Assembly (NCBI GenBank): GCA_902779705.1
Contig: CACZCR010000009.1
Span: 1,684-65,683 of the forward strand
DNA length: 64,000 nucleotides
From: an uncultured Bacteroidales bacterium
Lineage (GTDB): Bacteria > Bacteroidota > Bacteroidia > Bacteroidales > Paludibacteraceae
Direction of reading: 5' to 3'
In this document: positions 4,193 to 45,050 of the stretch, piece after piece
How positions within the stretch are numbered: the first letter of the stretch is position 1
How the letters are laid out: each line of letters opens with the position of its first letter
Translations under genes and position numbers: made by a program
The notes under the pieces: model-generated
The model's database searches: none
What the model was told of the DNA's origin: nothing
What the model saw: the letters and a program-made list of their open reading frames with translations, nothing else

Positions 4193-7100
4193 ATGTTTTT
4201 TCAGAATAGTGTCATAAAGAAGTACCTCGCGGCGCTTGATAATGAGCGTGTAGCAAAGGCGTGGGAAGATTATAAAGCGTATTTCCTGAACAAGGAGATA
4301 CAGGAGAATATACGCTCAAGCAAAGAGGAACAATTCCAAGAGGGCTTCCTCCGCGAACTTTTCGTGAAGGTGTTTGGCTACACCCTCAACCCCTCGCCAA
4401 ACTTCAACCTCATCACTGAGCAGAAGAACGAGACCGACGCCAAGAAAGCAGATGGCGCAATATTGAGGGATGAGAAAGTGATTGGTGTTATTGAGTTGAA
4501 AGACCACAAGACGACCGACCTCAGCCACGTCGAGCGTCAAGCGTTCGGCTACAAGAGCCAGCACAAGGATACGAAGTATGTGGTCATTTCCAACTTCGAG
4601 AAACTACGTTTCTATATTGACAACGCGGTCGAGCATATCGAATGGAACCTGTTCACGCTCAACGAGGACGACTTCCGTTTGCTCTATTTCTGCCTCGCAT
4701 GGACAAATATAAGCAACGATTTGCCGCTTAAAGCCAAACAGGAAAGCGTCAGCAACGAGGATCAGATCACCCAACAACTCTACAAAGACTACTCCGCATT
4801 TAAAAGGGAGATATTTGCGGACATACTCGCCAACAACACTACAGAAGAGACACCAAAAGAGCAGATCCTGCTTCTCTTCCGGAAGACCCAAAAACTGCTT
4901 GACCGACTGCTGTTCATCTTCTTTGCGGAAGACTGCGGTTTGTTGCCGCCTAACTCAATGGTTGAGATTCTCAAACAATGGGAGCAACTCAAAGAGATGG
5001 ACGAGTACAAGCCGCTTTACAGCCGCATTAAGAAGTATTTCGGATACATGGACACCGGCTGGCAGGGTAAGAAATACGAGATCTTCGCTTATAACGGTGG
5101 CCTGTTCAAACCTGATGAGGTGCTTGATTCTATCCAAATTAGCGACGATATCCTGGCACGGTTTACACGCAAACTCGCTGACTACGATTATTCAACGGAA
5201 GTCGATGTCAACATCCTCGGACATATCTTCGAGAACTCGCTTAACGAGATTGAAGAAGTCACAGCCCAGATCAACGCCGGTGAGGCTCCAACAGTCAGCA
5301 AGCGTAAACGCGACGGTGTGTTCTACACCCCACAGTATATCACCAAATATATTGTCGAGAACACCGTTGGTAGGCTATGTGCAGAGAAGAAAGCCGAAAT
5401 GGGTATCGACGAACAAGAGTATTTCGCGGACAAGAACCGCCAGACGGCAACGAAGAAAAGGCTTCTGGACCAGCTGACCGCTTACCGCGAATGGTTGCTT
5501 GGTATAACTATCTGCGACCCAGCTTGCGGTTCGGGGGCTTTCCTCAATGCCGCACTCCAGTTCTTGATGGCAGAGCATAAACTGCTCGACGAGATGGAAG
5601 CGAAAATCACCGGCTCGACGATTGCTTTCCAAGCGGTTGAGAACTCTATCCTTGAAAACAACCTCTATGGTGTCGATATTAACGAAGAGAGTGTCGAGAT
5701 CGCCCGTCTGGCTTTGTGGCTTCGTACCGCCAAGCCCCACCGCAAACTCAACTCGCTCAATAATAATATCAAGTGCGGCAACTCCCTCATCTCCGATCCT
5801 GAAATAGCGGGAGAGAAGGCTTTTGATTGGCAGAAAGAGTTTCCGCAGGTGTTTGAAAAAGGTGGCTTTGATGTGGTCATCGGTAACCCGCCCTATGGAA
5901 TATTAATTGATGATTCTTTAAAAGATTATTACACTAAAAATTTCCCATTGTCGAGATACAAACTCAACCTTTATATATTATTCTTAGAGCGAATGTTCCA
6001 GATTTATAAAAAAGGTGTAGTCTCTTTTATTATTCCAAAGTCTCTATTGATTAATTCTTATTTTGAGGATATTCGTAGATATATTCTTTCAAATTCAGAG
6101 GTGAGGGAATTATTTACAATAACAGAAAAAGTCTTTGAGGATGCAGAGGTGGGTTCAAGTTTAATAATTACTTTTGAAATAAAGAGTAGTATAAAAGAGA
6201 ACCATCTTGTTCGTCTTGCTAATTGTGAGAAAACAACAGATTTCAGGGATGGTACAAATATTGTACAAAACTTTGTGAATCAGAATATATTATTACAGGG
6301 AGAAAAAGCAGAAATAGTTATTCAATCAGAAGATTCAGATCAAATAAAATCTAAGATTATTAAATTCCCCCAGGCTAAAACATTCTATAAATTTAAGAAT
6401 GGACTAAACCCAGGAAATATCAAGGAGAAACTTATAACAAGAATTCCTGGCGAATTAACTCAGAAGATAATATGGGGAAAGGAAATTAAACAATATTGTA
6501 TAATTTGGGGAGGCGATTATATTATCTATGATGAACATATTGCTGATACTCTAACGATAAATGATATCCAAAGTAAAAAAGGTATGAATCAACAAACAAA
6601 GATTGACTTTGCGTTAAGAGATAAATCTTTGTTTGAAGTAGAGAAACTTGTTATTCGCAAAACAGGAGATAGATTAGTTTGTTCGTATGATGACCAAAAC
6701 TATTATTTTGACACATTAGTACATGGCATCTATCAAGTGAATACACAATATTCCTTAAAATATTTACTTGCTATTTTGAATAGTAAGCCGGCTACATATT
6801 TTTATAGATGCTTGCATGACATAAAAGGGAAAGTGTTTGCAAAAATAAGTTTGGATGATTTATCCTGTTTCCCTATCCCCGAATGTGCCGACCAACAGCC
6901 GTTTGTTGACCTTGCTGACCGCATGTTATCCCTTAATCGCGACCTCCAAACCAAACGCGCTCGGTTCTTGCGGAGATTGCAAGACAATATGCCGGACATT
7001 AAGATCACAGGCACCTTAGAGACCTTTGATACCCTTGATTTCGCGGGCTTTGTGGCTGAACTCAAGAAACAGAAGATTAAACTCTCCCTCGTCCAACAAG

Positions 7101-7246
7101 ACGAATGGGAAGAGTACTTCGGACAGTATAAAGCGGCACTAAACGAGATTTCAGTGCAGATATGTGCAACGGATAAGGAGATAGATGCACGTGTTTATGC
7201 GTTGTATGGCTTAACGGAAGATGAGATAAAACTAATCGAGGGATAA
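4193..7246 (+). CDS. Type IIG (fused endonuclease + N6-adenine methyltransferase + specificity) restriction-modification enzyme, Eco57I/MmeI-like
   Basis: 1017 aa. N-terminal PD-(D/E)xK-like DGAILRDEKVIGVIELKDHK. SAM motif I is DPACGSGAF and catalytic motif IV is GNPPYG (I before IV, so gamma class). The C-terminal tail VYALYGLTEDEIKLIE is typical of this enzyme class. Confidence 0.85.
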   Translation: MFFQNSVIKKYLAALDNERVAKAWEDYKAYFLNKEIQENIRSSKEEQFQEGFLRELFVKVFGYTLNPSPNFNLITEQKNETDAKKADGAILRDEKVIGVIELKDHKTTDLSHVERQAFGYKSQHKDTKYVVISNFEKLRFYIDNAVEHIEWNLFTLNEDDFRLLYFCLAWTNISNDLPLKAKQESVSNEDQITQQLYKDYSAFKREIFADILANNTTEETPKEQILLLFRKTQKLLDRLLFIFFAEDCGLLPPNSMVEILKQWEQLKEMDEYKPLYSRIKKYFGYMDTGWQGKKYEIFAYNGGLFKPDEVLDSIQISDDILARFTRKLADYDYSTEVDVNILGHIFENSLNEIEEVTAQINAGEAPTVSKRKRDGVFYTPQYITKYIVENTVGRLCAEKKAEMGIDEQEYFADKNRQTATKKRLLDQLTAYREWLLGITICDPACGSGAFLNAALQFLMAEHKLLDEMEAKITGSTIAFQAVENSILENNLYGVDINEESVEIARLALWLRTAKPHRKLNSLNNNIKCGNSLISDPEIAGEKAFDWQKEFPQVFEKGGFDVVIGNPPYGILIDDSLKDYYTKNFPLSRYKLNLYILFLERMFQIYKKGVVSFIIPKSLLINSYFEDIRRYILSNSEVRELFTITEKVFEDAEVGSSLIITFEIKSSIKENHLVRLANCEKTTDFRDGTNIVQNFVNQNILLQGEKAEIVIQSEDSDQIKSKIIKFPQAKTFYKFKNGLNPGNIKEKLITRIPGELTQKIIWGKEIKQYCIIWGGDYIIYDEHIADTLTINDIQSKKGMNQQTKIDFALRDKSLFEVEKLVIRKTGDRLVCSYDDQNYYFDTLVHGIYQVNTQYSLKYLLAILNSKPATYFYRCLHDIKGKVFAKISLDDLSCFPIPECADQQPFVDLADRMLSLNRDLQTKRARFLRRLQDNMPDIKITGTLETFDTLDFAGFVAELKKQKIKLSLVQQDEWEEYFGQYKAALNEISVQICATDKEIDARVYALYGLTEDEIKLIEG

Positions 7247-7406: not shown

Positions 7407-7862
7407 ATGAAACGATTGATGATCATTATAGCCGCAGCGGTGATGGCGGTGGGAGGGATGGCGCAGAGCCGTTTCTACAAGGGCAACTCGACCTATAGCA
7501 GCGATATACTCTACTCCTTCGACGGCAAGTATATCTACAACGGTCGGTCCACCTATAGTAGCGATATCCTCTACACCTACGACGGCAAGTATATATACAA
7601 CGGCCGGTCGAACTACAGCAGCGACATCCTACTCACGTGGGACGGGCAGTATATCTACAAAGGGCGGTCGAACTACAGCAGCGATATACTCTTCACCTTC
7701 GACGGGACCTATATCTACCGCGGCCGCTCGACCTACAGCAGCGACATACTCTACACCGTCAGCCATGGGCACCTCTACCGCGGACGGTCTACCTACAGCA
7801 GCGACATACTCTATAGCTTCGATAGTCGGCTGCCTTTGCCGGTACTGCTGATGATGCTATAA
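7407..7862 (+). CDS. Secreted repeat protein, 6 x 20-aa tandem repeats (unknown function)
   Basis: Signal peptide MKRLMIIIAAAVMAVGGMAQ is followed by six units of consensus (I/L)Y(N/K/R)GRSTYSSDILY(T/S)FDG(K/T)Y. Confidence 0.75.
   Translation: MKRLMIIIAAAVMAVGGMAQSRFYKGNSTYSSDILYSFDGKYIYNGRSTYSSDILYTYDGKYIYNGRSNYSSDILLTWDGQYIYKGRSNYSSDILFTFDGTYIYRGRSTYSSDILYTVSHGHLYRGRSTYSSDILYSFDSRLPLPVLLMML
7473..7832 (+). repeat. Six 60-nt tandem coding repeats
   Basis: Units differ mainly at synonymous positions (tat/tac, agc/agt, gat/gac, ata/atc). Confidence 0.9.
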
Positions 7863-11136: not shown

Positions 11137-11168
11137 ATTGTAGATTGTAGATTGTAGATTGTAAATTG
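11137..11168 (+). repeat. 7-nt tandem array (ATTG)TAGATTG x3 + TAAATTG
   Basis: Seen directly. The TTG start codon of bamA (11166) is the end of the last unit. Confidence 0.9.
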
Positions 11169-13766
11169 AAAAAGATAGTTAACATAGTGTTCGCCGTGCT
11201 GCTGTCGCTGTCATTGTATGCGCAGGACAGCATTCAAGTAGCAGATTCGGCATCGCTGCCTAAGATAGAGTACACCCTGCAGCGTCAGACCTACACCATC
11301 GCCGACATCAAGGTGAGCGGTGCTGACAGTTATGAGGACTTTGTGCTGATAGGTTTCTCCGGCTTGGCTGTGGGAGACGAGATAGAGGTTCCGGGTGAGC
11401 AGATCACCAAAGCGGTGAAGCGTTTCTGGAAGCAGGGACTGTTCTCCGACGTGAAGATCAAAGCCAACAAGATCGTAGGCGACAGCGTATGGTTGGAGAT
11501 AGCACTCCAGCAGCGTCCGCGTGCCTCGGAGGTGGTCTATCAGGGTGTGAAGAAGAGTGAGAAAGAGGACATCGAGGTCAAAGTGGGCCTGCGGACCGGT
11601 AGTCAGTTGACGCCTAACATACTGGACAACACCAAGACGGTGATCAAGAAATACTATGCCGAGAAGGGATTCCACAACACCGACGTGGACATTCGCCAGT
11701 ATCAGGACCAAGACCATCCGGGATACGTGCGTGTAGCAGTGCTGGTGGACAAGAAAGCCAAGACCCGTGTGGGTAAGATCTACCTGACAGGCAACGAGGC
11801 GTTGACCGACCTGCAGATCAACAAGGCGATGAAGAAGACCAACGACAACAACATCATCAACCTGTTCCGCACCAAGAAGTTTGTGACCGAGGAGTATGAG
11901 AACGACAAGAAAGCGATCATCGACAAATACAACGAGATCGGCTATCGCGACGCCTATATCGTAGCCGACAGCGTGGTGCCCAACCCCGAAGACCCGACAC
12001 GCGTAGATGTGTACATCACCGTATCGGAGGGTGGCAAGTACTACGTGCGCAACATCAGCTGGGTGGGCAACACCGTCTATCCGAGCGAGGCGCTGAACAA
12101 CATGCTGGGCGTCAAGAAGGGTGACACCTACAACCTCAAGCTGCTGAACGATCGTCTGATCAACGACGACGATGCGGTCAGCAAGCTGTATACGGACAAC
12201 GGCTACCTGTTCTTCAACGTCGAGCCCGTCGAGACCAGTGTGTCAGGTGACTCGATCGACTTTGAGATGCGTATGTACGAAGGTCGTCCGGCGACCATCA
12301 ACGAGATCAAGATCGTCGGCAACGAGCGCGTGTATGAGCATGTGGTACGCCGCGAGCTCTACACCAAGCCCGGACAGCTGTACTCGCAGTCGGACATCAT
12401 GCGTTCGCTGCGTGAGTTGGCACAGATGGGGCACTTCAACGCCGAGAAACTGGTGCCGGACATCCAGCCTAACCCCGAAGAGGGAACGGTGGACATCACC
12501 TACCAGCTGGAGACCAAGTCGAGCGACCAGATCGAGTTCTCACTCGGTTGGGGTGCCACAGGCCTGGTGGGATCGTTGGGACTGAAGTTCACCAACTTCG
12601 CCATCCAGAACCTGTTTAACAAAAAATCCTATCGTATCGTGCCACAGGGTGAGGGACAGACCTTCTCGATCAACGCCCGTACCAACGGTGTGTACTACAC
12701 CTCGGCCTCGATATCGTTCCTCGAGCCGTGGCTGGGCGGTAAGCGTCCTAACAGCTTGAGCGCAAGCATCTATTTTGCATCGCAGACGGGTTACTCGAAC
12801 CGCTACTACAAGGCCTACCAAAACCTGTATAACACCTATTCGGACTACTATTACTACTCAGGCAACTCCAACTACTACCAGCAGCTGGCCGAGTCGGAGG
12901 CCGACCCGGGTAAGTACCTGCGCACGTTTGGTGTGTCGCTGGGATACGGTAAGCGACTGAAATGGCCGGACGACTATTTCTCGTTCTACGGCGAGCTCAG
13001 CTACCAGATGTATATGATGAAAGACTGGCCGTACCTGCTGATATCGGATGGTACGAGTCATAACTTCTCGATCAACCTGCAGCTGTCGCGTTCGTCTATC
13101 GACAACCCCATCTACACGCGCCGCGGTAGCCAGTTCACGCTGGGTCTGAAGATCACCCCGCCATACTCGCTGATCAACGGCAAGGACTACTCGCAGATGA
13201 CCAACAACGAGAAGTACCACCTGATCGAGTACCACAAGTGGAAGTTCACCGGCAAGGTGTTCACGCCGCTGACACCGGACAGCAAGCTGGTGCTGATGAC
13301 GCGTGCCGAGTTCGGCTATCTGGGCCACTATAACCAATACGCCAAGTCGCCGTTTGAGTCGTTCTATATGGGTGGTGACGGTATGACCAGTTATACCTCC
13401 TACTCGACCGAGTATATCGGTATGCGTGGTTACACCTCGGGTTCGTTGACGCCGTACGACGTGGCTACAGGACGTAACATGGGTTACGTGTACAACAAGT
13501 TCACCATGGAGCTGCGCTACCCGATCACGCTCGAGCAGTCGGCAACGATCTGGGCATTGGCCTTCCTGGAGGCAGGTAACTGTTTCTCGGACATACGCAA
13601 CTACAACCCCTTCAACCTCAAACGCTCCGCCGGCGTGGGTGTACGTATCTTCCTGCCGATGTTCGGACTGCTGGGTGTAGACTGGGGTTACGGATTTGAC
13701 AAGATAAACGGCAGCAGCCAGTACGGCGGCAGCCAATTCCACTTCGTGCTGGGACAAGAACTATAA
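11166..13766 (+). CDS. bamA: Outer membrane protein assembly factor BamA
   Basis: 866 aa with signal peptide MKKIVNIVFAVLLSLSLYAQ, POTRA-like repeats and a C-terminal Omp85 barrel ending ...GGSQFHFVLGQEL. It starts at TTG; there is no in-frame ATG nearby. Confidence 0.93.
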   Translation: MKKIVNIVFAVLLSLSLYAQDSIQVADSASLPKIEYTLQRQTYTIADIKVSGADSYEDFVLIGFSGLAVGDEIEVPGEQITKAVKRFWKQGLFSDVKIKANKIVGDSVWLEIALQQRPRASEVVYQGVKKSEKEDIEVKVGLRTGSQLTPNILDNTKTVIKKYYAEKGFHNTDVDIRQYQDQDHPGYVRVAVLVDKKAKTRVGKIYLTGNEALTDLQINKAMKKTNDNNIINLFRTKKFVTEEYENDKKAIIDKYNEIGYRDAYIVADSVVPNPEDPTRVDVYITVSEGGKYYVRNISWVGNTVYPSEALNNMLGVKKGDTYNLKLLNDRLINDDDAVSKLYTDNGYLFFNVEPVETSVSGDSIDFEMRMYEGRPATINEIKIVGNERVYEHVVRRELYTKPGQLYSQSDIMRSLRELAQMGHFNAEKLVPDIQPNPEEGTVDITYQLETKSSDQIEFSLGWGATGLVGSLGLKFTNFAIQNLFNKKSYRIVPQGEGQTFSINARTNGVYYTSASISFLEPWLGGKRPNSLSASIYFASQTGYSNRYYKAYQNLYNTYSDYYYYSGNSNYYQQLAESEADPGKYLRTFGVSLGYGKRLKWPDDYFSFYGELSYQMYMMKDWPYLLISDGTSHNFSINLQLSRSSIDNPIYTRRGSQFTLGLKITPPYSLINGKDYSQMTNNEKYHLIEYHKWKFTGKVFTPLTPDSKLVLMTRAEFGYLGHYNQYAKSPFESFYMGGDGMTSYTSYSTEYIGMRGYTSGSLTPYDVATGRNMGYVYNKFTMELRYPITLEQSATIWALAFLEAGNCFSDIRNYNPFNLKRSAGVGVRIFLPMFGLLGVDWGYGFDKINGSSQYGGSQFHFVLGQEL

Positions 13767-13823
13767 GACCGCTTCGCTGAAAGAATAAAGACCGTTCACT
13801 ACGTTCACTGAAAGAATAAAGAC
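13766..13823 (+). repeat. Intergenic copy of the GACCGCTTCGCTG(A/T)AAGA word array
   Basis: AAGACCGCTTCGCTGAAAGAATAAAGACCGTTCACTACGTTCACTGAAAGAATAAAGAC, located between bamA and ompH. Confidence 0.85.
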
Positions 13824-13827
13824 TAAA

Positions 13828-14899: not shown

Positions 14900-15046
14900 A
14901 TGGCAGACGGCTATCTGGAGAAACATTACGCCGAATACGAAAAGAAAAAGGCGGAATGGTTGAAAAAGAAAAGCAAATGGTCTAATCGTCAATTGTCTAA
15001 TCGTCAATCTAATTATGGTAAAAGCAATACAAAAGACCCTGCGTGA
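14900..15046 (+). CDS. Small ORF, 48 aa (hypothetical)
   Basis: MADGYLEKHYAEYEKKKAEWLKKKSKWSNRQLSNRQSNYGKSNTKDPA. The ATG lies 1 nt after the ompH stop. The tail is encoded by a 13-nt tandem repeat (14981-15013) and overlaps the MFS start. The N-terminal MADxxLEKHYxxYEKxKxxW motif seems familiar from Bacteroidales small proteins, but that is unverified. Confidence 0.3.
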   Translation: MADGYLEKHYAEYEKKKAEWLKKKSKWSNRQLSNRQSNYGKSNTKDPA

Positions 15047-16385
15047 CAGCATGGTAGCACGTTGGGCGGTGCTTGTCCTGGTGGCGTCGATGATGTTCTT
15101 CGCCTATATGTTTGTCGACATTCTATCGCCTCTTGCATCCTTGCTCGATAAGTCGCTCAACTGGGACCAGGGTGTGTTCGGCACCTATGCTGCAGGTGAA
15201 TACCTTTTGAATGTGTTCGGCTTTCTGATCCTGGCCGGTATCATCTTGGACAAGATGGGTGTACGTTTCACGGGACTGCTCTCCGCAAGCCTGATGGTGA
15301 TTGGTGCAGGCATCAAGTACTGGGGTATATCCTGGGCGGATGCCAACACGGTCGAGTGGCTCAACTGCTGGTGGCCGTCGATGCCGGGTAGCGCCAAGAT
15401 AGCGATGTTCGGCTTTATGATCTTCGGTTGCGGCTGCGAGATGGCCGGTACGACCGTGAGCAAGATCCTGGCCAAGTGGTTCAAGGGCAAAGAGATGGCC
15501 TTGGCCATGGGTCTGGAGATGGCTATCGCCCGTCTGGGTGTGTTCGCTGCTATGTGGCTGTCGCCTATCTTCAGCGCTAAGTTCGCTATCGATGGCACCA
15601 ACTCGGTGGTAGCACCGCTGCTGTTCGCGACGTTGCTGCTGATCGTAGGTCTGCTCAACTTCTTTGTGTTCACTATCATGGACACCAAGTTTGACCAACA
15701 ACTGGTAGCTATCGGCGAAGCCACGGCAGAGAAAGATCCGGAGGATGAGTTCCATGTATCGGACCTCAAGCAGATATTCAGCTCTAAGATGTTCTGGATC
15801 ATCGCCCTGCTGTGCGTACTGTACTATAGCGCTATCTTCCCCTTCCAGCGTTTTGCCACCAACTTCCTCGAGGAGACGCTATCGATCGATAATGCCGAAG
15901 CGGCAGGCTTGTTCAAGTGGTTCCCGATACTGGCAATGGTACTGACCCCGTTCCTGGGTGCGTTCATCGACTACAAGGGCAAAGGTGCCTCGATGATGCT
16001 GATCGGCGCCGTGATCATGATCGTGTGCCACTCGGTGTTCGCCTTTGTGCTGCCGCTCTACCCGAGCAAGACCTTGGCGCTGGCTACTATCCTCGTGCTG
16101 GGCGTGAGCTTCTCGCTGGTGCCGGCATCGATGTGGCCGTCTGTGCCTAAGATCATCGACGAGAAAGTGCTGGGTTCGGCCTACTGCCTGATTTTCTGGG
16201 TGCAAAACATAGGCTTGTGCCTTGTGCCGCTGCTGATCGGCAAGCTGCGTGTAGCTACCGACGGCTACCTGGTACCGATGATCGTGTTTGCATCGTTCGG
16301 CGTACTGGCTTTCCTGCTCAGTCTGGCACTCAAGGTAGAGGACAAAAAGAAGAACTATGGATTGGAGCTTCCTAACAAGAAATAA
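15015..16385 (+). CDS. MFS transporter
   Basis: 456 aa with about 12 predicted TM helices and an MFS-like loop GIILDKMGVRFTG. Confidence 0.8.
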   Translation: MVKAIQKTLRDSMVARWAVLVLVASMMFFAYMFVDILSPLASLLDKSLNWDQGVFGTYAAGEYLLNVFGFLILAGIILDKMGVRFTGLLSASLMVIGAGIKYWGISWADANTVEWLNCWWPSMPGSAKIAMFGFMIFGCGCEMAGTTVSKILAKWFKGKEMALAMGLEMAIARLGVFAAMWLSPIFSAKFAIDGTNSVVAPLLFATLLLIVGLLNFFVFTIMDTKFDQQLVAIGEATAEKDPEDEFHVSDLKQIFSSKMFWIIALLCVLYYSAIFPFQRFATNFLEETLSIDNAEAAGLFKWFPILAMVLTPFLGAFIDYKGKGASMMLIGAVIMIVCHSVFAFVLPLYPSKTLALATILVLGVSFSLVPASMWPSVPKIIDEKVLGSAYCLIFWVQNIGLCLVPLLIGKLRVATDGYLVPMIVFASFGVLAFLLSLALKVEDKKKNYGLELPNKK

Positions 16386-17697
16386 CGAATCGCTCACCGT
16401 CACCACCGACAGCCGGAAGATCACTCCAGGCTGCGTGTTCGTGGGTCTGAAGGGCGAACACTTTGACGGCAACACATTTGTGGCACAGGCACTCGAGATG
16501 GGTGCCGCCTATGCCATCACCGATGCCGAGCAGCCGATGACCTGCTCACAGGCCAAGGACTACAACGGACGTATCATCCGTGTAGACAACAGCCTGCTGG
16601 CGCTGCAAGACCTGGCACGCGCTTGGCGGCGCGAACTGGGACTGCCTATCATCGGCATCACCGGCACCAATGGCAAGACTACCACCAAAGAGCTACTGGC
16701 CGCTGTGCTGTCCACCAAGTATACGCTGCATTATACGCAGGGCAATCTCAACAACCAGATCGGCGTGCCGCTGACCTTATTACAAATGACGCGCGCGCAC
16801 GAGCTGGCTATCGTTGAGATGGGCGCTTCCCACCCGGGCGATATCAAGGAGCTGGTTCAGATAGCCGAACCCAACTACGGCCTGATCACCAATGTGGGAC
16901 GGGCACACCTGCAGGGTTTTGGCTCGTTTGAAGGCGTGATGAAGACCAAAGCCGAACTCTACGACTGGCTCGTAGCACACAACGGCACCATCTTCCGCAA
17001 CGCCGACAATCCGCATCTCAAAGAGATGTATCTTACAGCGAAGCGATCTTACAGCGAAGCGGTCATACAGCAAAGTGGTCTTTCAGGCGAAGCCGGTCTG
17101 CTTTATCACACCGGCACAATGCCGGAGGGCACCCACCTCGTAGGCGGCTATAACGCAGAGAATGTGTCGGCGGCTATCTGTGTCGGTCAGTATTTCGGCG
17201 TGAGCCAAGAGGATGCACTGGCAGCTATCCGCGCCTATGTGCCGTCTAACAACCGCTCACAACTGATGCAGACCGAGCGCAACACCGTCATCGTCGATGC
17301 CTACAACGCCAACCCCACCTCCATGACCGCAGCTATCGAAGCGTTTTATCATACAGCGCCAGCGGTCCTACAGCAAAGCGGTCTTACAGCCGAAGGCGGT
17401 CCTACAGGCGAAGCCGGTCATGAAACAGCCCGCTGTTTCATACTCGGTGCGATGCGTGAATTGGGCGAATACAGTCACCTTGAGCACCAGAACATCGTCA
17501 ACATGCTGCTGGAGCGCAAAGCAGACCTGGTGCTGCTGGTGGGCGAAGAGTATAAAGAGACGACGGCCCCCTACCCGGTGTTTGACAACGTAGATGCACT
17601 CTGTGAGCACCTCCAACAAGAGCCGATCAGCGGATACCGCATCCTGCTGAAGGGTTCACGCTCCAACCAACTAGAGAAAGTAATTCCACTATTGTAA
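16357..17697 (+). CDS. murF: UDP-N-acetylmuramoyl-tripeptide--D-alanyl-D-alanine ligase
   Basis: TTDSRKITPGCVFVGLKGEHFDGN, P-loop GITGTNGKTTTKE, DAYNANPTSM. It contains two repeat-derived segments (see findings). Confidence 0.9.
   Translation: MDWSFLTRNNESLTVTTDSRKITPGCVFVGLKGEHFDGNTFVAQALEMGAAYAITDAEQPMTCSQAKDYNGRIIRVDNSLLALQDLARAWRRELGLPIIGITGTNGKTTTKELLAAVLSTKYTLHYTQGNLNNQIGVPLTLLQMTRAHELAIVEMGASHPGDIKELVQIAEPNYGLITNVGRAHLQGFGSFEGVMKTKAELYDWLVAHNGTIFRNADNPHLKEMYLTAKRSYSEAVIQQSGLSGEAGLLYHTGTMPEGTHLVGGYNAENVSAAICVGQYFGVSQEDALAAIRAYVPSNNRSQLMQTERNTVIVDAYNANPTSMTAAIEAFYHTAPAVLQQSGLTAEGGPTGEAGHETARCFILGAMRELGEYSHLEHQNIVNMLLERKADLVLLVGEEYKETTAPYPVFDNVDALCEHLQQEPISGYRILLKGSRSNQLEKVIPLL
17031..17100 (+). 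repeat. Word array (reverse orientation of GACCGCTTCGCTGTAAGA family) inside murF
   Basis: TCTTACAGCGAAGCGATCTTACAGCGAAGCGGTCATACAGCAAAGTGGTCTTTCAGGCGAAGCCGGTCTG, encoding LTAKRSYSEAVIQQSGLSGEAGL. Confidence 0.85.
17350..17420 (+). repeat. Second word array of the same family inside murF
   Basis: CATACAGCGCCAGCGGTCCTACAGCAAAGCGGTCTTACAGCCGAAGGCGGTCCTACAGGCGAAGCCGGTCA, encoding HTAPAVLQQSGLTAEGGPTGEAGH. Confidence 0.85.
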
Positions 17698-18670: not shown

Positions 18671-19672
18671 ATGGAAAAGAAACAACCCTCCGCAGACAAA
18701 CTCAAAGCGCTGCAGTTGGCGATGCAGAAGATCGACAAGGACTTCGGCAAAGGCGCCATTATGAAACTGGGCGACGACAAGATAGAAGATGTACCGGTGA
18801 TCTCGACCGGTAGTGTCAGTCTGAATATGGCCTTGGGCGTAGGCGGTTACCCGCGCGGCCGCGTAGTAGAGATCTACGGTCCGGAGTCTTCCGGTAAGAC
18901 CACGCTGGCGATCCATGCCATCGCCGAGGTACAGAAAGACGGCGGTATAGCAGCCATCATCGATGCTGAGCATGCTTTTGACCGCTTCTACGCCGAGAAA
19001 CTGGGCGTGGACATCAACAGCCTGCTGATTGCTCAGCCGGACAGCGGCGAACAAGCACTGGCTATTGCTGACGAGCTGATCCGCAGTTCGGCAGTGGATC
19101 TGGTAGTGATCGACTCAGTGGCAGCTTTGACACCCAAAGCCGAGATCGAAGGCGAGATGGGCGATAACAAAGTGGGACTGCAGGCACGACTGATGTCGCA
19201 AGCGCTGCGCAAACTGACCGCTACGATCAACAAGACCCAGACCACCTGTATCTTCATCAACCAGCTGCGCGAGAAGATCGGTGTGATGTTCGGCAACCCC
19301 GAGACTACCACCGGTGGTAACGCCCTCAAGTTCTACGCTTCCGTTCGTCTGGATATCCGCAAGGTGGGCCAGATCAAGAACGGCGAAGAGATCATCGGCA
19401 ACCAGATCCGCGTCAAAGTGGTGAAGAACAAAGTGGCTCCACCATTCAAGAAAGCAGAGTTTGATCTGATGTTCAACGAAGGTATTTCCAAAGTGGGCGA
19501 GCTGATCGACCTGGGTGTAGCATACGAGATCCTCAAGAAAGCCGGCAGCTTCTACAGCTACGGTGACACCAAACTGGGACAGGGACGCGACGCTGTCAAA
19601 GCGGTGCTCAAAGACAACCCTGAGTTGCAAGCAGAGATCGAACAGAAGATCATGGAGGCTGCTAAAGCGTGA
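18671..19672 (+). CDS. recA: Recombinase RecA
   Basis: [72 protein letters not shown]. Confidence 0.98.
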
Positions 19673-21246
19673 ACGAGGTTCAGGTCATAGTTTCGCCTAA
19701 GAAGGCCTACGAACTGGAACAGCAGTTCCGGATCGTCAAGAAGTCTATAGATGCACGTCAGCGCGAGCTGAAGGTGCATCTAACCTTATTAGCCGACGAC
19801 CAAGGCCACTATGTCCCCCTCGACTCACCCCTAACCCCCTCATCCACTAATCCCCTAACCGGTAATCCCTCACCCGTACCCGGTAACCCCTCACCCGTCT
19901 CTATCATCGGCGCCGGTCCGGCGGGACTGTTTGCGGCATTGACGCTTATAGAACACGGCATCAAGCCCATCATCTACGAGCGCGGCAAAGAGGTGGGTGA
20001 GCGCAAGAAAGATATTGCCCTACTCAACCGCAACATGGGCCTCAATCCCGAGTCGAACTACTGCTTTGGCGAAGGAGGCGCCGGCACGTTCTCGGACGGT
20101 AAGCTCTTCTCGCGCTCCAAGAAGCGGGGCAACATGCAACGCGTGATGGAGATCTTCCACTATTTCGGGGCATCGGACCGTGTGCTTTATGAGACCCATG
20201 CACACATAGGCAGCGACCGCCTGCCGTCTATCATTCGCCGCATCCGCGAGTATATCCTCGCCCACGGCGGCGAGATCCATTTCAACACCAAGATCGACTC
20301 TCTCTCCCCCCTACCCCACTCATCCACTAACCCCCTAACCGGTACCCCCTCACCCATCATCCTCGCCATAGGCCACTCCGCCCACGATACCTATCGGATG
20401 TTGGCCAAGGAAGGCGTACAGATGGAGACCAAAGGGTTTGCTATGGGCGTTCGTATTGAGCACCCGCAGTCGCTGATCAATCGGTTGATGTACCATTTGG
20501 GAGAGTCGAAAGACCGCTTCGCTCAAAGAAAAAAGACCGCTTCGCTCAAAGAAGAAAGAAGCCTCATCGATCTGGTGGGTAACGCTTCGTACAGTCTGGT
20601 AACTCAGGTCAATGGACGCGGGGTGTATTCGTTCTGTATGTGTCCCGGCGGCCATATAGTGCCGGCAGGCAGCGAGAACGGGCTTAGGGTGGTCAACGGG
20701 ATGTCTGCCAGCCATCGCAACTCGCCGTATGCCAACTCGGGTATGGTGGTAGAGATACGCCCCGAAGATATACCCGGCGATGATCCGCTACGCGGACTGG
20801 AGTACCAAGAGGCCTTAGAGCGCCTGGCCTTTGAGCACGGAGGTGCTCAAGAGCAGGCTCCGGCGCAGCGCATGCGAGATTTTGTGGAAGGCAAAGCCTC
20901 CAAAGATCTGCCATCGTGCAGCTATCTGCCGGGGCTGGTCAACAGCCGTCTCGATCAGTGGTTACCGGCCCATATAGGACCCAGACTGCAACAGGGTTTT
21001 CGGGATTTTGACCGCAAGTATCCGGGCTTTTTGACCAACGAGGCCGTGATAGTAGGCGTAGAGAGCCGCAGCTCCAGTCCGGTGCGTATCGTACGCGACA
21101 AAGAGAGTATGCAGTCGCTGTCCCATCCCTGGCTCTACCCCTGCGGCGAAGGAGCCGGCTATGCAGGAGGTATCACCTCCTCGGCCCTGGATGGCATCAA
21201 TGCAGCATTGGCAATCATCAAACTATGGAACGAACAATACAACTAA
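19669..21246 (+). CDS. FAD-dependent oxidoreductase (COG2509-like uncharacterised FAD-dependent dehydrogenase)
   Basis: Dinucleotide-binding motif [13 protein letters not shown], ...[14 protein letters not shown]..., C-terminal ...[18 protein letters not shown]. The GTG start overlaps the recA stop. Three repeat-derived segments are present. Confidence 0.8.
19814..19899 (+). repeat. C-rich (G-rich on the opposite strand) ~8-nt word array inside the CDS
   Basis: TCCCCCTCGACTCACCCCTAACCCCCTCATCCACTAATCCCCTAACCGGTAATCCCTCACCCGTACCCGGTAACCCCTCACCCGTC, encoding [28 protein letters not shown] directly before the FAD-binding GxGxxG. Confidence 0.9.
20301..20355 (+). repeat. Second copy of the same C-rich array inside the same CDS
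   Basis: CTCATCCACTAACCCCCTAACCGGTACCCCCTCACCC is nearly identical to 19838-19875. It encodes [19 protein letters not shown]. Confidence 0.9.
20509..20560 (+). repeat. Two perfect 21-nt copies of AAGACCGCTTCGCTCAAAGAA (23-nt period) inside the CDS
   Basis: Seen directly. They encode [16 protein letters not shown]. Confidence 0.9.
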
Positions 21247-21984: not shown

Positions 21985-23346
<1,362 letters not shown>

Positions 23347-23431: not shown

Positions 23432-25321
23432 TTATTCCACCGTCACCGACTTGGCCAGGTTGCGTGGCTGGTCCACATCGCAGCCTTTGACCACGGCTAT
23501 GTGGTACGCCAGCAGCTGCAGCGGGATGACCGTCAACAGCGGCGTGAGGCACTCTTCGGTCTGAGGTATCTCGATCGTATAGTCGGCTATCTTGCTCACC
23601 AACTCGTCGCCTTCACTCACCACCGCGATCACCCTACCCTTGCGGGCTTTGATCTCTTGGATGTTGCTCACCACTTTCTCGTACGTGCCACAGCGCGGAG
23701 CTACTACCACTACCGGCATCTCCTGGCTGATCAGGGCTATAGGTCCATGTTTCATCTCAGCTGCCGGATACCCCTCGGCGTGGATATAAGATATCTCCTT
23801 GAGTTTGAGCGCGCCTTCGAGAGCCACGGGGAAGTTATAACCACGACCCAGATAGATGAAGTTCTGGGCGTAGGAAAAGATCTTAGCGAAGTCGGCTATA
23901 CGCTTGTCCTCGCCTAAGACGCGTTCGATCTTGGTGGGTATCTGGCCCAACTCGCGAACGATACGATTATACCGTTCCTCACTAATCCCCTCATCCGCTG
24001 ATCCACTCATTCGATTTTTCTCCCTACCGATACAGAGTGCCAACATTGTCAGGGCCGTCACTTGGGCGGTGAAAGCCTTGGTTGAAGCCACACCTATCTC
24101 GGGTCCTACGTGCGTATAGCAACCGCTGTCAGAGACGCGTGGGATGGAGGCGCCTACCACATTGCAGATCGAGAAGATAAACGCACCTTTTTCTTTGGCC
24201 AGCTGGATAGCCGCCAAGGTGTCGGCCGTCTCACCGGATTGGGAGATAGCAATCACGACATCATCTTTGTTGATCACCGGCTTGCGGTAGCGGAACTCCG
24301 ACGAGTACTCCACCTCCACCGGTATCCGGGCAAACTCCTCGATGGCGTACATCGCTATCAGGCCTGCGTGCCAACTGGTGCCGCAGGCGGTGATGATGAT
24401 ACGCTTGGCGTTCAAGAACCGCTCCTTGTTGTCGATAAATCCCGACAACGCGATGTTGTCCTGCCGTACGTTGACGCGTCCCCGCATCGAGTCGGCCAGT
24501 GTACGCGGCTGCTCGAAGATCTCCTTGAGCATAAAGTGCGGATAGCCGCCCTTCTCCAACTGACTGAGCGACAACTCCAGCCGCTTGATCTCCGGCGTCT
24601 TCTGCACATTATTGATGGTCGTGATCTCGATCCCTTCATTCTTTAACTCTTTCACTCCTTCACTCTTTAACACGACCACTTCCTCATCTTCGATATAGAT
24701 CACCTTATCGGTGTACTCCACGATAGGGGTGGCGTCGGAGGCCAGGAAATACTCGTCCTCGCCGATGCCGACCACCAGCGGGCTACCTTTACGGGCGGCA
24801 ATCAGGGTGTCGGGATGGGTCTTGTCGAGTATAGCAATCGCATAGGCACCAATCACCTGCTGCAGCGCCAGCTGTACGGCCGTCTTGAGGTCCACATGTT
24901 GGTTGACCTGGGTGTACTCCACCAGCTGCACCAGCACCTCGGTGTCGGTGTCCGACTTGAAGGTGTAGCCCTGCTCCATCAGACCGGCTTTCAAGACGGC
25001 GTAGTTCTCGATGATACCGTTGTGAATGATCGCCAGCCGCTCCGACTCCGAGTAATGCGGATGGGCATTCAGGGTGTTGGGTTCGCCGTGCGTTGCCCAA
25101 CGCGTATGGGCGATACCTATCGTGCCGGTGATATCCTTGTCGGACGCGAATGCTTCCAGTTCGGACACTTTGCCTTTGGCTTTGTAGATGTTTAGTTGGC
25201 CTTGCTCGTTGATGAGCGCCACGCCGGCACTGTCATAACCTCTATACTCGAGACGATGCAGGCCCTTGATCAGGATCGGATACGCCTTGCGCTTGCCGAT
25301 ATATCCTACTATTCCACACAT
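23432..25321 (-). CDS. glmS: Glutamine--fructose-6-phosphate aminotransferase (isomerising)
   Basis: The N-terminal MCGIVGYIG (Ntn Cys), SIS domains and the C-terminal ...DQPRNLAKSVTVE are present. Two repeat-derived segments lie inside. Confidence 0.98.
   Translation of the reverse strand: MCGIVGYIGKRKAYPILIKGLHRLEYRGYDSAGVALINEQGQLNIYKAKGKVSELEAFASDKDITGTIGIAHTRWATHGEPNTLNAHPHYSESERLAIIHNGIIENYAVLKAGLMEQGYTFKSDTDTEVLVQLVEYTQVNQHVDLKTAVQLALQQVIGAYAIAILDKTHPDTLIAARKGSPLVVGIGEDEYFLASDATPIVEYTDKVIYIEDEEVVVLKSEGVKELKNEGIEITTINNVQKTPEIKRLELSLSQLEKGGYPHFMLKEIFEQPRTLADSMRGRVNVRQDNIALSGFIDNKERFLNAKRIIITACGTSWHAGLIAMYAIEEFARIPVEVEYSSEFRYRKPVINKDDVVIAISQSGETADTLAAIQLAKEKGAFIFSICNVVGASIPRVSDSGCYTHVGPEIGVASTKAFTAQVTALTMLALCIGREKNRMSGSADEGISEERYNRIVRELGQIPTKIERVLGEDKRIADFAKIFSYAQNFIYLGRGYNFPVALEGALKLKEISYIHAEGYPAAEMKHGPIALISQEMPVVVVAPRCGTYEKVVSNIQEIKARKGRVIAVVSEGDELVSKIADYTIEIPQTEECLTPLLTVIPLQLLAYHIAVVKGCDVDQPRNLAKSVTVE
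23978..24013 (-). repeat. 8-nt G-rich word array inside glmS
   Basis: Coding strand CGAATGAGTGGATCAGCGGATGAGGGGATTAGTGAG, encoding NRMSGSADEGISEE. Confidence 0.85.
24635..24673 (-). repeat. Short word array inside glmS
   Basis: Top strand TTCATTCTTTAACTCTTTCACTCCTTCACTCTTTAACAC, encoding VLKSEGVKELKNEGIE. Confidence 0.8.
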
Positions 25322-26535: not shown

Positions 26536-26592
26536 CACTAATCCACTAACCACTAATCCGGTCATCCACTACCCCACTACTCCACTAACCCG
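26536..26592. repeat. 8-nt word array (TAATCCAC family) spanning the dapL-dapF gap and the dapF 3' end
   Basis: CACTAATCCACTAACCACTAATCCGGTCATCCACTACCCCACTACTCCACTAACCCG. The last dapF codons (...IGLVE-stop) are read from it. Confidence 0.9.
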
Positions 26593-30082: not shown

Positions 30083-32011
30083 ATGAAAAATGTAAAGACA
30101 ATATTTTGCCTTATTTCGCTATTAGTAGCCGGCATAACAAATGTGTGGGGAGATATCTATACGCATGATTATAATGAAAACATTAAAGGTTCGTATAACA
30201 CTTCGACACACACGTTGACTATTACCGGAACCGGCGCCATACCAAACTGCACCGATGGTAATAACTATTATGGCGGATACAATAGTGATATCACAAAAAT
30301 TATTATTGGAGAAGGTATAACGGGGATTGGCAGGTATGTTTTTGATGAATATACAAATGTGACTTCCATTACATTCCCTTCAACACTTACCAGTATAGCT
30401 ACTAATAATTTTGGTAATTCAAAGAAGATTGTTGACATTCATGCATCTAGTCCTAACCAATGGGCACAAGTTACGATCACCGCTACTTCCGGACACCCTT
30501 TTGGCACCATAGGCGGTGTTGATAGTGAAGTAAAAGCGGCACGCGGTTTTTACTTTAATGGCAGTAATAAGAAATCGCGAGCTCTTATATTCACACAAGG
30601 CCTAGACTCTGTTAGACAATACACTTTTTATAATGCTCGATATTTTACAAGTGCGTACATACCAGGCTCCGTTTCCAGAATAAACAGCTCATCTCTTACG
30701 TGCCTATTTGACACAGTCGTTGTTAATAAAATGGATCGTCCAATATTAGCAAATGCTACAACTATTAGTTTCAACAACCCAAGTGTTCTCATTGTGCCGA
30801 CGGGCGCGACAAATTTCACAGAAGCAAAATATTGGCTATATAGCACAGCTGTAGGCAAGAACTCAAGTGGAGCCCGCTCTAAAAATGAGCAAAACGTTAG
30901 CGGCACAGTAGATGGACAGGATTGGAGTTTGAGCACTAGCGGAGTATTGACCATAAATGGTTCAGGGGCGCTGAGCACCTCATTTGTCACTTCGTCCGGA
31001 GCGTCTCAATACCCTTACTACTATTTCCGCTATTTGGTGGACAAAGTAGTTGTTACCGGTGGTATTACAGCATTAAGCAATATTCTTCAACGATGCGAAG
31101 CAATGAAGGAGATTGATATCAACCAAGCAAAAGTTCCTACAGCATCATCTACTCTTCCTTCTTTGATTCATGGAGGGAGTATCACCTTTATGGTTAATCC
31201 GTTAGCACTTGGTGATGCGAGCGCAAGCAACTTAGCTTCAACACCTTGGACGGATGCTAAGTTTGGGGATTTAACATTGTCGGATGATGTAACTGTAGAT
31301 GAGACCGATTATAATGCAGGAACAATGCTTCGTAATATTCACAAGTACGTAAAGAAGAACATCAACTTGAAGTTCGTTCGTGCAAAAATGGAAAATACGT
31401 ACTTTAACACCTTCTGCTCTCCTATACCTCTTTCTGCAGAGGAAGTAAGGAGCATTTTCGGTGAGGCGGATATTCGAACATTAACGAGTTCCAGCTATGA
31501 CGAAGAAAGTCAGACATTGACATTAAACTTCTCTGATCCTGCAACACCTATAACAACCATCGATTCTGGTGTACCTTATCTTATCCAACCGGAAAAAGAG
31601 GTGGATTTCTCAACTATTACTTTTGAAAATATCGCCCCCCAAAAAGTGGTCACCAGTGCAAAAAAAGTTACAGGCGATCACGTGAACTTCTATGGTACAT
31701 TAGGAAAGGTGAGTGTTACAGCAGGACAAATTGCCAATGCGTCGTTCCTTTTCCTTTTGGCGGACAACAAGTTGACCTATGCTACAGAAGGAAGCCTGAG
31801 AGGAATGAGAGCATACTTCATCCTCAATCCTTCGGTTCCAGCCGGTGCTTTAGCGCATCGCCCGGTACTGAACCTTGGTGACGAGCAGACCCCGACCGCG
31901 ATTGATAAGACTCAGACGGAGGTGAAGGCAGAGAAGGTGATGGAGAATGGGGTGATGTATATCATCAAGAATGGGGTGAAGTACAGTGTGATGGGAGAGA
32001 GGGTCAGATGA
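30083..32011 (+). CDS. Secreted leucine-rich-repeat (BspA-like) surface protein
   Basis: Signal peptide, then ITKIIIGEGITGIGRYVFDEYTNVTSITFPSTLTSIATNNFGNS (LRR_5/BspA-type repeats). The C-terminal motif ...KVMENGVMYIIKNGVKYSVMGERVR is shared with three other ORFs. The gene is lower in GC than its neighbours. Confidence 0.75.
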   Translation: MKNVKTIFCLISLLVAGITNVWGDIYTHDYNENIKGSYNTSTHTLTITGTGAIPNCTDGNNYYGGYNSDITKIIIGEGITGIGRYVFDEYTNVTSITFPSTLTSIATNNFGNSKKIVDIHASSPNQWAQVTITATSGHPFGTIGGVDSEVKAARGFYFNGSNKKSRALIFTQGLDSVRQYTFYNARYFTSAYIPGSVSRINSSSLTCLFDTVVVNKMDRPILANATTISFNNPSVLIVPTGATNFTEAKYWLYSTAVGKNSSGARSKNEQNVSGTVDGQDWSLSTSGVLTINGSGALSTSFVTSSGASQYPYYYFRYLVDKVVVTGGITALSNILQRCEAMKEIDINQAKVPTASSTLPSLIHGGSITFMVNPLALGDASASNLASTPWTDAKFGDLTLSDDVTVDETDYNAGTMLRNIHKYVKKNINLKFVRAKMENTYFNTFCSPIPLSAEEVRSIFGEADIRTLTSSSYDEESQTLTLNFSDPATPITTIDSGVPYLIQPEKEVDFSTITFENIAPQKVVTSAKKVTGDHVNFYGTLGKVSVTAGQIANASFLFLLADNKLTYATEGSLRGMRAYFILNPSVPAGALAHRPVLNLGDEQTPTAIDKTQTEVKAEKVMENGVMYIIKNGVKYSVMGERVR

Positions 32012-45030: not shown

Positions 45031-45050
45031 ATCCGCCATGTATGGCGGAT
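45031..45050. repeat. Perfect palindrome ATCCGCCAT-GT-ATGGCGGAT in the 31-nt gap between the RAYT-like start and the gdhA stop
   Basis: Seen directly. Confidence 0.95.

Follow-up and report, generated by a model that had tools for sequence, protein, structure and literature searches.

A short mini-hairpin word recurs in arrays within murF, other genes and spacers of Bacteroidota

The murF gene of an uncultured Bacteroidales bacterium of the family Paludibacteraceae contains two arrays of a short DNA word that is found again at other places on the same contig. We asked what this word is, and how it could have come to lie at several loci, most of them within reading frames. The window that we analysed is a 64-kb stretch (64,000 nucleotides; assembly GCA_902779705.1, contig CACZCR010000009.1, positions 1,684 to 65,683). 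Named relatives that are 75-80% identical, together with the sample names, suggest a Paludibacteraceae-type metagenome-assembled genome from the rumen. The initial annotation, which was made from the letters of this window, had described a word of about 17 nt at five or more loci in both orientations, mostly coding, and had proposed that it is mobile or templated rather than a product of local slippage. The analysis presented here shows a family of 16-23-nt units that share a grammar and a covarying hairpin core, recur across several orders of Bacteroidota, and sit in two hypervariable sites of MurF. We suggest tentatively that these arrays may form a family similar to the REP (repetitive extragenic palindrome) and BIME elements.

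To locate the word, we searched both strands of the window for GACCGCTTCGCTGTAAGA, allowing up to three mismatches, and took the expectation from dinucleotide shuffles. Nine matches were found at five loci and on both strands, as compared with 0.04 expected (the shuffle maximum was one). The matches are located at 13767, 20512, 20535, 49504 and 49554 on the plus strand and at 17031, 17047, 17063 and 17366 on the minus strand. Tandem Repeats Finder recovered repeats in murF at 17030-17093 (period 16, 3.9 copies) and 17362-17419 (period 18, 3.4 copies), in the gene of a FAD-dependent protein at 20509-20559 (period 23), and in nrdG at 49503-49558 (period 17). On the plus strand, 17031-17100 and 17350-17420 read as head-to-tail CTTACAGCGAAGCGGT-like units, which agrees with the earlier description of two reverse-oriented arrays in murF; the peptides quoted for them were also correct. 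Word arrays lie inside reading frames at four of the five loci.

Because the window and most of its relatives come from metagenome assemblies, the arrays could in principle be an artefact of assembly or binning. Several observations speak against this. Independent assemblies repeat the window sequence, one being 100% identical (L001) and another, from a different sample, 99.95% identical (L002; L numbers denote the loci compared), and the presence of the same arrays in both indicates that they are real sequence. The reading frames that contain arrays stay open. The word family is also found in the cultured isolates Flavobacterium longum CIP111716T, Galbibacter orientalis DSM 19592 and Flavobacterium lotistagni. 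We therefore regard the artefact explanation as effectively refuted, with a negligible probability.

The host of the two reverse-oriented arrays, murF (16357-17697, plus strand), encodes a UDP-MurNAc-tripeptide--D-Ala-D-Ala ligase of 446 aa with the Pfam domains Mur_ligase, Mur_ligase_M and Mur_ligase_C, and its product matches E. coli MurF (1GG4) with E = 8.5e-51. Array 1 (17029-17103, word on the minus strand) comprises codons 225-249, which encode YLTAKRSYSEAVIQQSGLSGEAGLL, and is flanked by the conserved codons for Met224 and Tyr250. It contains three units of 16 nt (17032-17047, 17048-17063 and 17064-17079) and one of 18 nt with a GGCGAAGCC hairpin (17080-17097), followed by CTGCTT. Array 2 (17347-17433, word on the minus strand) comprises codons 331-359, which encode YHTAPAVLQQSGLTAEGGPTGEAGHETAR, and its units measure 17 nt (17350-17366), 16 nt (17367-17382), 18 nt (17383-17400) and 18 nt (17401-17418). 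The murF inserts are thus 75 and 87 nt long and are built of 16-18-nt direct repeats. As the unit period is no multiple of three, consecutive units are read in different frames; the reverse word is open in all three.

A 9-bp inverted repeat marks the right junction of array 2 (17419-17441; ATGAAACAG-CCCG-CTGTTTCAT), and its right arm is made of the host codons Cys-Phe-Ile. By DNA folding it is the sole strong hairpin predicted in the arrays, and its counterpart in the related locus L137, ATAAAACAG-CGCG-CTGTTTTAT, carries a compensated double change. The junction hairpin is present in all array-bearing alleles of this second site (GHETA.CFILG), whereas alleles without an array read CYILG (Cys-Tyr-Ile). 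The hairpin was also considered as a dispersed element of its own, and this was ruled out, as its sequence is unique to the 17419-17441 site.

Where the arrays lie in the protein was assessed with an AlphaFold2 model built from an alignment of MurF relatives (mean predicted local distance difference test score, pLDDT, 73.9). The pLDDT falls below 50 at residues 235-245 and 334-354, within arrays 1 and 2, and both arrays fall in poorly aligned, variable stretches relative to E. coli MurF 1GG4. The arrays are thus predicted to form surface loops of MurF, modelled with low confidence.

The remaining three loci of the window show the same units in other settings. In nrdG (49355-49897, minus strand), four 17-nt units lie in frame and antisense to the gene (49502-49572, word on the plus strand), encoding SLTAKRSNSDNGLTVITVLQRSGLP; NrdG also contains GLRVTGYGLRTA, which is encoded by a CCGTAAC array. 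Among 26 NrdG relatives both of these positions are hypervariable, holding word-type loops, other loops or minimal ones, and some NrdG relatives have the multi-unit peptide SEAVCQCNGLSG.AG in common with some MurF relatives. The gene of the FAD-dependent protein (19669-21246) has three arrays, one of which consists of two 23-nt word units (AAAGACCGCTTCGCTCAAAGAAA; 20509-20559, plus strand) that lie in frame and encode 16 residues. This array is kept in L003 and L005. In L002 it lacks one 23-nt unit (20509-20531; L002 13323-13330), which shifts the frame, and the gene is called there as two open reading frames (ORFs) of 296 and 223 aa. The change may be genuine, as an inactivating or phase-like variant, or may reflect a repeat that was collapsed when L002 was assembled. 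The fifth locus is intergenic: a word array on the plus strand (13764-13827) makes up the entire spacer between the stop codon of bamA and the start codon of ompH. The bamA stop codon TAA opens the segment TAAGACC, after which come two units with GCTTCGC and GTTCACTACGTTCAC cores, GAAAGAATAAAGAC linkers, then TAAA and the ATG. In L005, a lineage 92% identical to the window, a TAATTGG/TGATTGG heptamer array stands in place of this array. A further comparison, of the region downstream of tyrS in the window and in L091, was set aside as a possible empty site because the downstream genes differ.

We next compared the flanks of word copies, and these reveal a unit grammar. A unit of 16-23 nt consists of an A-rich linker ending in AAGACC, a hairpin of 2-5 bp, and T-NN-AAGA (for example AAGACC-GCTTCGC-TGAAAGAC). 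Written out, the grammar is [..AAGA]CC-[hairpin]-T-NN-AAGA[C]; xxAAGAC octamers frequently come next. Units occur singly, in short direct arrays or as inverted pairs. The element is dispersed, as the initial annotation had it, and with this grammar is more than the plain 17-nt word described there. Near the seed word, 91 of 128 GACC segments lead into a hairpin with a stem of 2 bp or more and then a T, compared with 13.7 +/- 3.7 in shuffles. A relaxed version of the unit pattern was discarded as too noisy. We found 45 different hairpin cores, ranging from GTTTCAC and ACTGCGT to GGCCCTGCGGCC and GCGACGAAGTCGC. Cores of 7 nt have T-N-C loops with all four bases at N (TTC 18, TGC 13, TCC 4, TAC 4), and those of 8 nt are mostly GCTNNCGC (GCT-NN-CGC).

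If the core acts as a hairpin, its two arms should change together. We counted pairs across all 36 core types in a fixed frame and compared the result with 500 shuffles. Core cells were paired in 66.7% of cases, as opposed to 51.2 +/- 3.9 in shuffles, and the covariation score was 0.412 versus 0.201; none of the 500 shuffles reached either value, and slid-frame controls scored lower. Read on the opposite strand, the cores become GCGNAGC or GCGNNAGC, which is the mini-hairpin DNA consensus. Mini-hairpins of this sequence are extraordinarily stable, and only GNA loops work, with GAA the most stable of them (PMC13037366). The word cores share the invariant G and A and the free N of this motif, and GAA is their commonest loop. 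Mini-hairpin DNA, however, has been a structural motif of priming sites, N4 promoters and synthetic oligonucleotides, and not a genomic repeat family.

To determine how far the word extends beyond the window, we scanned one genome per species (185,579 species, 596 Gb) for the exact word GACCGCTTCGCTNWAAGA. It occurs at 119 or more loci; by an arithmetic estimate, about 139 matches to the exact word would be expected by chance in the entire 596-Gb collection. Among the matches listed, 101 are in Bacteroidota: 19 labelled Paludibacteraceae, 38 from other Bacteroidales, 38 from Flavobacteriales and six others. The 38 other Bacteroidales are metagenome-assembled genomes, mostly from rumen or gut, and the isolates named above are Flavobacteriales with the exact word. 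Eighteen of the matches listed belong to other phyla and mostly lack the surrounding grammar, L037 and L114 being exceptions. No match from Bacteroides or Prevotella is among those listed, and the distribution is for this reason probably patchy. A scan of viral contigs gave six single word matches, none with the surrounding grammar, and thus no sign of a phage carrier. At gathering thresholds, the sole Rfam match in the window is one tRNA, and seven array-rich loci gave no match at E <= 0.01 (Rfam 15). A literature search for the exact word returned one irrelevant primer match only, and the word is not listed in the supplementary REP tables of PMC6006769. We thus found no description of this word family in Rfam or in the searched literature.

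The positions of these copies bear on the question of whether the word serves its host directly. A crude ORF map was used to call the 114 copies in Bacteroidota among the matches listed, to which the following counts apply, as coding or intergenic. Coding copies number 41 (21 sense, 20 antisense) and intergenic copies 73; in spacers between co-directional genes 27 are sense and 17 antisense, while 13 lie in convergent spacers and two in divergent ones. An upstream gene ends on the 5' side of 50 of the 72 intergenic copies with a gene called there, and in those 50 the distance from the gene end to the word is mostly 0-36 nt. Frequently the TAA of TAAGACC or the TAG of TAGACC itself supplies the stop codon of the upstream gene; position 13764 of the window is an example.

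Such positions would be expected if the word were a cis-acting site of the host, either a site of mRNA binding or processing, involved in translation or operon processing in a phylum that does not use Shine-Dalgarno sequences, or a single-stranded DNA priming or nucleoid-protein site, with selection maintaining the word in spacers and coding copies as tolerated spill-over. An 18-nt word that is identical across orders of Bacteroidota would fit such a function. So would the preference for sites behind an upstream gene end and the way in which arrays often run from a stop codon to within a few bases of the following ATG. There are also precedents: heptamer repeats before starts, including those of Paludibacter, have been proposed as regulator sites (PMC4679880), and mini-hairpins have been described from the priming sites of phages and plasmids and from N4 promoters (PMC13037366). 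On the other hand, the strand preference is weak, as the 27 versus 17 co-directional and 21 versus 20 coding copies show, and one third of the copies lie within genes. Units are degenerate within arrays, and close lineages have unrelated arrays at one and the same spacer. Neither the window nor the seven array-rich loci matched an Rfam family. Taken together, we consider a cis-acting site an unlikely explanation.

A short conserved word that occurs in both orientations, behind genes in spacers (in some cases as an inverted pair) and at permissive coding positions is also reminiscent of DNA uptake sequences such as the DUS of Neisseria or the USS of Pasteurellaceae, words with thousands of copies per genome that favour the uptake of DNA carrying them. 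Uptake sequences, however, are not tandem arrays of degenerate units with covarying hairpins, and to our knowledge a single uptake word common to distant orders would be unprecedented. An uptake function is accordingly highly improbable.

In Bacteroidota outside the window the units are also arranged in larger structures. A forward array, a centre of 26-100 nt and a reverse array follow one another at about 10 loci among the matches listed, and inverted array pairs are found in L087, L042, L117, L092, L104, L091, L088 and L124; the window contains no inverted pairs of word arrays. Composite elements were observed in the rumen Bacteroidales loci L082, L088, L091, L092, L093, L106, L108 and L124. 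In these, a conserved centre (AGTTAC....AGTCGAAyrCATwTAA, about 26-30 nt) separates forward word units from the reverse T/C-rich units (GTCTTTATTCCTTACTCC...) that come after it, and the whole would form a long imperfect intergenic hairpin. Flavobacteriaceae have a repeated element of 110-240 nt with inverted ends, TTGTCCGA...TCGGACAA, in which the word is found some 12-15 nt in from one end (L024, L079, L080 and L097, from Galbibacter orientalis; also L031, L033, L061, L081 and L095). This element is possibly a carrier or a relative of the arrays.

We then turned to MurF itself, for which 26 relatives were aligned and the best 120 surveyed. Outside the two array sites MurF is highly conserved, while both sites are hypervariable. 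Among the best 120 relatives, word-derived peptides occupy site 1 in 58 and site 2 in 37. The remaining relatives have low-complexity fillers such as GPIVNRPIVN, LGDLGNLGALG, MVNGKMVNAQMVNG, EKKSLESLKTLRSL, IINHKS and NLQMLQSSNLQ, or minimal loops, namely AGDLPAIL (8 aa) at site 1 and KGN, QGN or MGN (3 aa) at site 2; L006 and many others have only the three residues KGN or QGN at site 2. In the DNA, the alternative fillers are again short tandem repeats, of AATCGTC type in L004 and of CTAGGAGAC type in L005 and L006. The word-derived segments are thus restricted to a subset of close relatives, others having different fillers or none. The word is also far from confined to the loci of the window, and the outcome that the initial annotation would have taken as a refutation was accordingly not seen.

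Differences between close relatives show how the MurF arrays vary. Array 2 of L004 equals that of the window minus exactly one 18-nt unit (17383-17400). At site 2 the word allele is linked to particular flanks (IEAF..CFILG as opposed to INAF..CYILG), and L003, which is 98.5% identical to the window overall, bears the other allele together with L005-like flanks, which indicates that site-2 alleles transfer by homologous recombination. The two arrays of a genome also change in concert. The window has TACAG linkers at both murF sites, L137 and L138 have GTCAG or TTCAG at both, and in L138 one long first unit is common to both sites; a rare long unit occupies site 1 of L137 and site 2 of L138. This likeness of arrays 1 and 2 within one genome suggests gene conversion between them. 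Genome-specific linker variants had been considered as a sign of active turnover within a genome, an idea that was rejected because the variants proved to be array-specific.

Could the arrays have arisen without any agent of dispersal? In this explanation, a genome-wide tendency to create and lengthen short tandem repeats fills permissive sites, slippage at very stable mini-hairpins yields GCGAAGC-type units convergently, and recombination and descent account for the similarity between loci. The window is indeed rich in local repeats. Counting arrays with a Tandem Repeats Finder score of at least 50 and a period of at most 30, the window has 20 short tandem arrays of many unrelated families (3.1 per 10 kb; a shuffle has none, and control loci from outside Bacteroidota have 0.9 per 10 kb). 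Permissive sites hold many different repeat families in relatives, and fillers such as LGDLGNLGALG resemble in-situ expansions. Moreover, all strain differences seen are gains or losses of units or swaps of alleles. However, convergence can explain the 7-nt hairpin and not the flanks (GACC before the hairpin and T-NN-AAGA after it) shared in both orientations by Bacteroidales and Flavobacteriales, and it leaves the identical multi-unit peptides of MurF and NrdG unexplained. The occurrence of the same word with the same flanks at five window loci and at least 101 Bacteroidota loci makes local slippage alone insufficient, and to this extent the earlier proposal of a mobile or templated sequence stands. 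We consider the absence of any dispersal agent distinctly unlikely.

We also looked for an enzyme that could disperse the word. Pfam listings for about 6.4-59 kb of the window contain housekeeping genes, an MmeI-type enzyme and a GmrSD nuclease, and within that range they include neither a reverse transcriptase nor a classical transposase. A motif scan (HuH as DHFH, and YVQDNP) picked out an ORF of 380 aa (43880-45022, minus strand) that resembles REP-associated tyrosine transposases (RAYT), which belong to the Y1-HUH class. It matches the NCBIfam REP-associated tyrosine transposase model with E = 5.6e-10 and 39 bits, below the cut-off of 80, and Pfam Y1_Tnp with E = 0.075. Its family has 1598 database relatives annotated as hypothetical, and orthologs, found in varied gene neighbourhoods, have similar hairpins. 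The window ORF has flanking hairpins of its own, ATCC(G/T)CCAT-NN-ATGGCGGAT (ATCCGCCAT..ATGGCGGAT), which differ from the word. One copy lies upstream (45031-45050), at least four lie downstream in a 65-nt tandem repeat (43673-43860), and one lies in frame inside the ORF between the two motifs (44609-44628, peptide YPPCMAD). An in-frame hairpin copy inside the gene has been described for subclass 2.4 of TnpA(REP) (PMC6006769). The class of enzyme that the initial annotation had suggested looking for, HUH/Y1, is thus present in the window, with a different hairpin and not the word at its flanks; the other suggestion, a reverse transcriptase, was not borne out in the 6.4-59 kb covered.

How does the word family compare with repeat systems that are already known? 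REP, BIME and REPIN elements, which RAYT transposases mobilise, likewise consist of short hairpin units that keep conserved bases at their flanks and are dispersed in many copies, as singles, clusters or inverted pairs, and they are likewise enriched after genes and in convergent spacers. The occurrence of single units, direct arrays and inverted pairs gives the word family a similar organisation, and inverted dimers of REPIN type have their equivalent in the Bacteroidota loci with inverted array pairs. In-frame insertions in loops are also documented for other REP families (PMC6006769). The differences are nonetheless considerable. A REP is an imperfect palindrome of about 20-40 nt with a stable stem-loop, whereas word units measure 16-23 nt and have stems of mostly 2-3 bp. 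The conserved 5' REP tag at the hairpin foot, the tetranucleotide GT[AG]G or CGTC, does not occur in the units, which are flanked instead by AAGACC (5') and T-NN-AAGA (3'). REPs are extragenic, while about one third of the word copies listed are coding and direct tandem arrays dominate; REP families are lineage-specific, while the word is common to several orders. Finally, a cognate RAYT is flanked by its own repeat (a REPtron), and the RAYT-like ORF of the window has another hairpin at its flanks.

Other systems share single features with the word family. Rickettsia palindromic elements (RPE) were reportedly described by Ogata et al. in 2000 as lying in frame in protein genes, at permissive, surface-exposed positions, and leaving the gene intact. 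MurF (at two sites), NrdG and the FAD-dependent protein likewise show in-frame insertion at permissive positions. RPE, however, are single insertions of 100-150 bp with long-range palindromic structure that are confined to Rickettsia, whereas here we find arrays of 16-18-nt units, with alternative arrays at the same site in relatives. Short tandemly repeated repetitive sequences (STRR, such as the heptamers of cyanobacteria) and long simple sequence repeats (LSSR) are similar in their abundant spacer arrays, often before starts, in having one unit at many loci in patchy taxa, and in their head-to-tail units that are gained or lost (here with periods of 16, 17, 18 and 23, as in L002 and L004); an example is the TAACTGA heptamer repeat just upstream of starts in Beggiatoaceae, cyanobacteria and some Bacteroidetes including Paludibacter (PMC4679880). 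Word units differ in being longer, in their covarying hairpin, and in occurring in both orientations and inside essential genes, and the word with its flanks at five window loci and at least 101 Bacteroidota loci goes beyond the local expansion of STRR and LSSR. The arrays of the window have neither the terminal inverted repeats nor the target-site duplication of miniature inverted-repeat transposable elements (MITEs), a MITE-like carrier being found only in Flavobacteriaceae. Readings as a diversity-generating retroelement (DGR) or retron were rejected, with no reverse transcriptase in the Pfam lists (about 6.4-59 kb) and no template copy in the window, as were CRISPR and intein-like readings, there being no spacer-like unique sequence and no splicing domain. 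The word family thus falls outside the REP, RPE and MITE families as these are defined, and each of its ingredients has a precedent: REPs, in-frame insertions of RPE and REP, short tandem spacer repeats, and mini-hairpin DNA.

Shared flanks, both orientations, spread across the phylum, a covarying core and a REP/BIME-like arrangement together speak for a family of common origin with a structure-dependent life cycle, and against independent slippage at each locus. The reading we lean towards, tentatively and with a little less than even confidence, is that the arrays are a REP/BIME-like family of mini-hairpin repeats, active as hairpins of single-stranded DNA and, like RPE, tolerated when inserted in frame. 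Under this reading, copies of the word would land, or be copied, anywhere in the genome. Selection would retain copies in operon spacers, often starting at a stop codon, and in rumen Paludibacteraceae would also retain stop-free in-frame arrays in disordered surface loops of MurF, NrdG and the FAD-dependent protein. An existing array could gain or lose whole units by slipped-strand events favoured by the hairpins, could swap sequence with other arrays by gene conversion, and could pass between strains as an allele by homologous recombination. The relevant form would be single-stranded DNA, and the first seeding may be due to a trans-acting HUH/Y1-type enzyme that works on single-stranded DNA, or to templated repair that copies from another array.

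A number of results weigh against a REP/BIME-like family. With standard nearest-neighbour DNA folding of both strands, the arrays were no more stable than shuffles: z-scores ranged from +0.3 to +2.7, except for -1.8 on the plus strand of array 2, which reflects the junction hairpin. For this reason we dropped any energy-based claim and base the hairpin on covariation and the mini-hairpin literature; the missing excess stability would be expected if folding parameters omit the special stability of mini-hairpin loops. The longest identity between any two word loci of the window is about 19 bases, which gives no pointer to recent movement, and the word arrays of MurF are common to relatives down to about 70% identity, which makes them old. 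The identity of an 18-nt word across orders exceeds the usual conservation of REPs and could reflect a host function instead. No empty-versus-filled polymorphism, target-site duplication or defined insertion site was found for the word, nor was a seeding event or a link to an enzyme observed in the window, strains and loci compared. In these respects the earlier claim of mobility or templating was not upheld: we found no transposition event, target-site signature or template (the word search revealed no longer copy in the window from which the arrays could have been templated), and strains differ by whole units gained or lost, a slippage-type change, and by alleles exchanged through homologous recombination. 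The word is not near the RAYT-like ORF or its orthologs in L134-L136, the three that were checked, and tblastn found no RAYT-like homolog in the 119 word-selected loci among the matches listed. With no association in the flanks of the gene, its three orthologs or the loci searched, a link between this ORF and the word was not supported.

A bolder and rather doubtful extension of the REP/BIME-like reading is a so far unrecognised "micro-REP" class in Bacteroidota. Its units of 16-23 nt, with a GNA-loop mini-hairpin core formed in single-stranded DNA, would be copied by a conserved enzyme acting on single-stranded DNA or by hairpin-primed templated repair, building spacer arrays and continually rewriting loops on the surface of essential enzymes, MurF and NrdG among them. 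If this were true, such repeats would act as a natural source of novel peptide loops for housekeeping proteins.

A repeat family of this kind would add a phylum-wide set of small repeats to a group in which such elements are barely described. Its mini-hairpin DNA consensus is an unusually clear structural signature, and points to single-stranded DNA as the active form. Essential, highly conserved enzymes of rumen Paludibacteraceae with hypervariable loops made from repeat DNA bear on the origin of new protein segments. There are practical consequences as well: a unit gained or lost can split a gene if its length is not divisible by three, as in L002, which affects gene calling and ortholog alignment in metagenome-assembled genomes, and the variability of the arrays could serve strain typing. 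The word also offers a testable substrate for the poorly understood Y1-HUH (RAYT-like) proteins of Bacteroidota.

The word arrays are set in a genome that is rich in other repeats. The short arrays of the window have units such as ATTGTAG, CCCCTAAT, CCCACTAA, TAAATCG, CACTAATC, TGAGATT, ATGAGGGG and CCGTAAC, among others. Examples with units of 7-11 nt lie at 11137-11168, 14976-15008, 19828-19898, 20307-20340, 21985-22028, 23985-24010, 24633-24680, 26536-26588, 32009-32065, 34441-34493, 49610-49639 and 59220-59333. Arrays with these unit lengths fill many spacers and lie in frame in the FAD-dependent protein, GlmS, NrdG and the ORF at 33517-34575, and close lineages have different arrays of this type, or none, at matching positions. 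Many of them are true arrays of 7-8-nt units, and this background resembles the heptamer repeats known from cyanobacteria, Beggiatoaceae and a few Bacteroidetes (PMC4679880). When 20 kb of the window was compared with L003 and L005, the divergent blocks consisted largely of short arrays in spacers and at fixed gene positions; those of L005 additionally comprised element insertions and a few small clusters of substitutions. A MITE-like element of about 130 nt (…CGCGTTCGGCTCCAAGATCGCAAAGACCGAACCGCTCCACTAATCGGTAGTGGCGACTTGGGCCTCCGCTCTCCCCAA…GGGGGCCCC…AAAGAGGGGGAGA) lies in two L005 spacers, which match window positions 18629 and 23346, and is absent from the window. Longer tandem units were observed too: a 39-nt unit is repeated 2.8 times at 2737-2847, upstream of or within the ORF at 2515-3534, and a 60-nt unit repeated 5.8 times at 7474-7822 makes up most of a 151-aa ORF (7407-7862). 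Two defence-type genes complete the picture, an MmeI-family restriction-modification enzyme of 1017 aa (4193-7246) and a GmrSD-type nuclease of 613 aa (41322-43163), the latter adjoining the RAYT-like gene.

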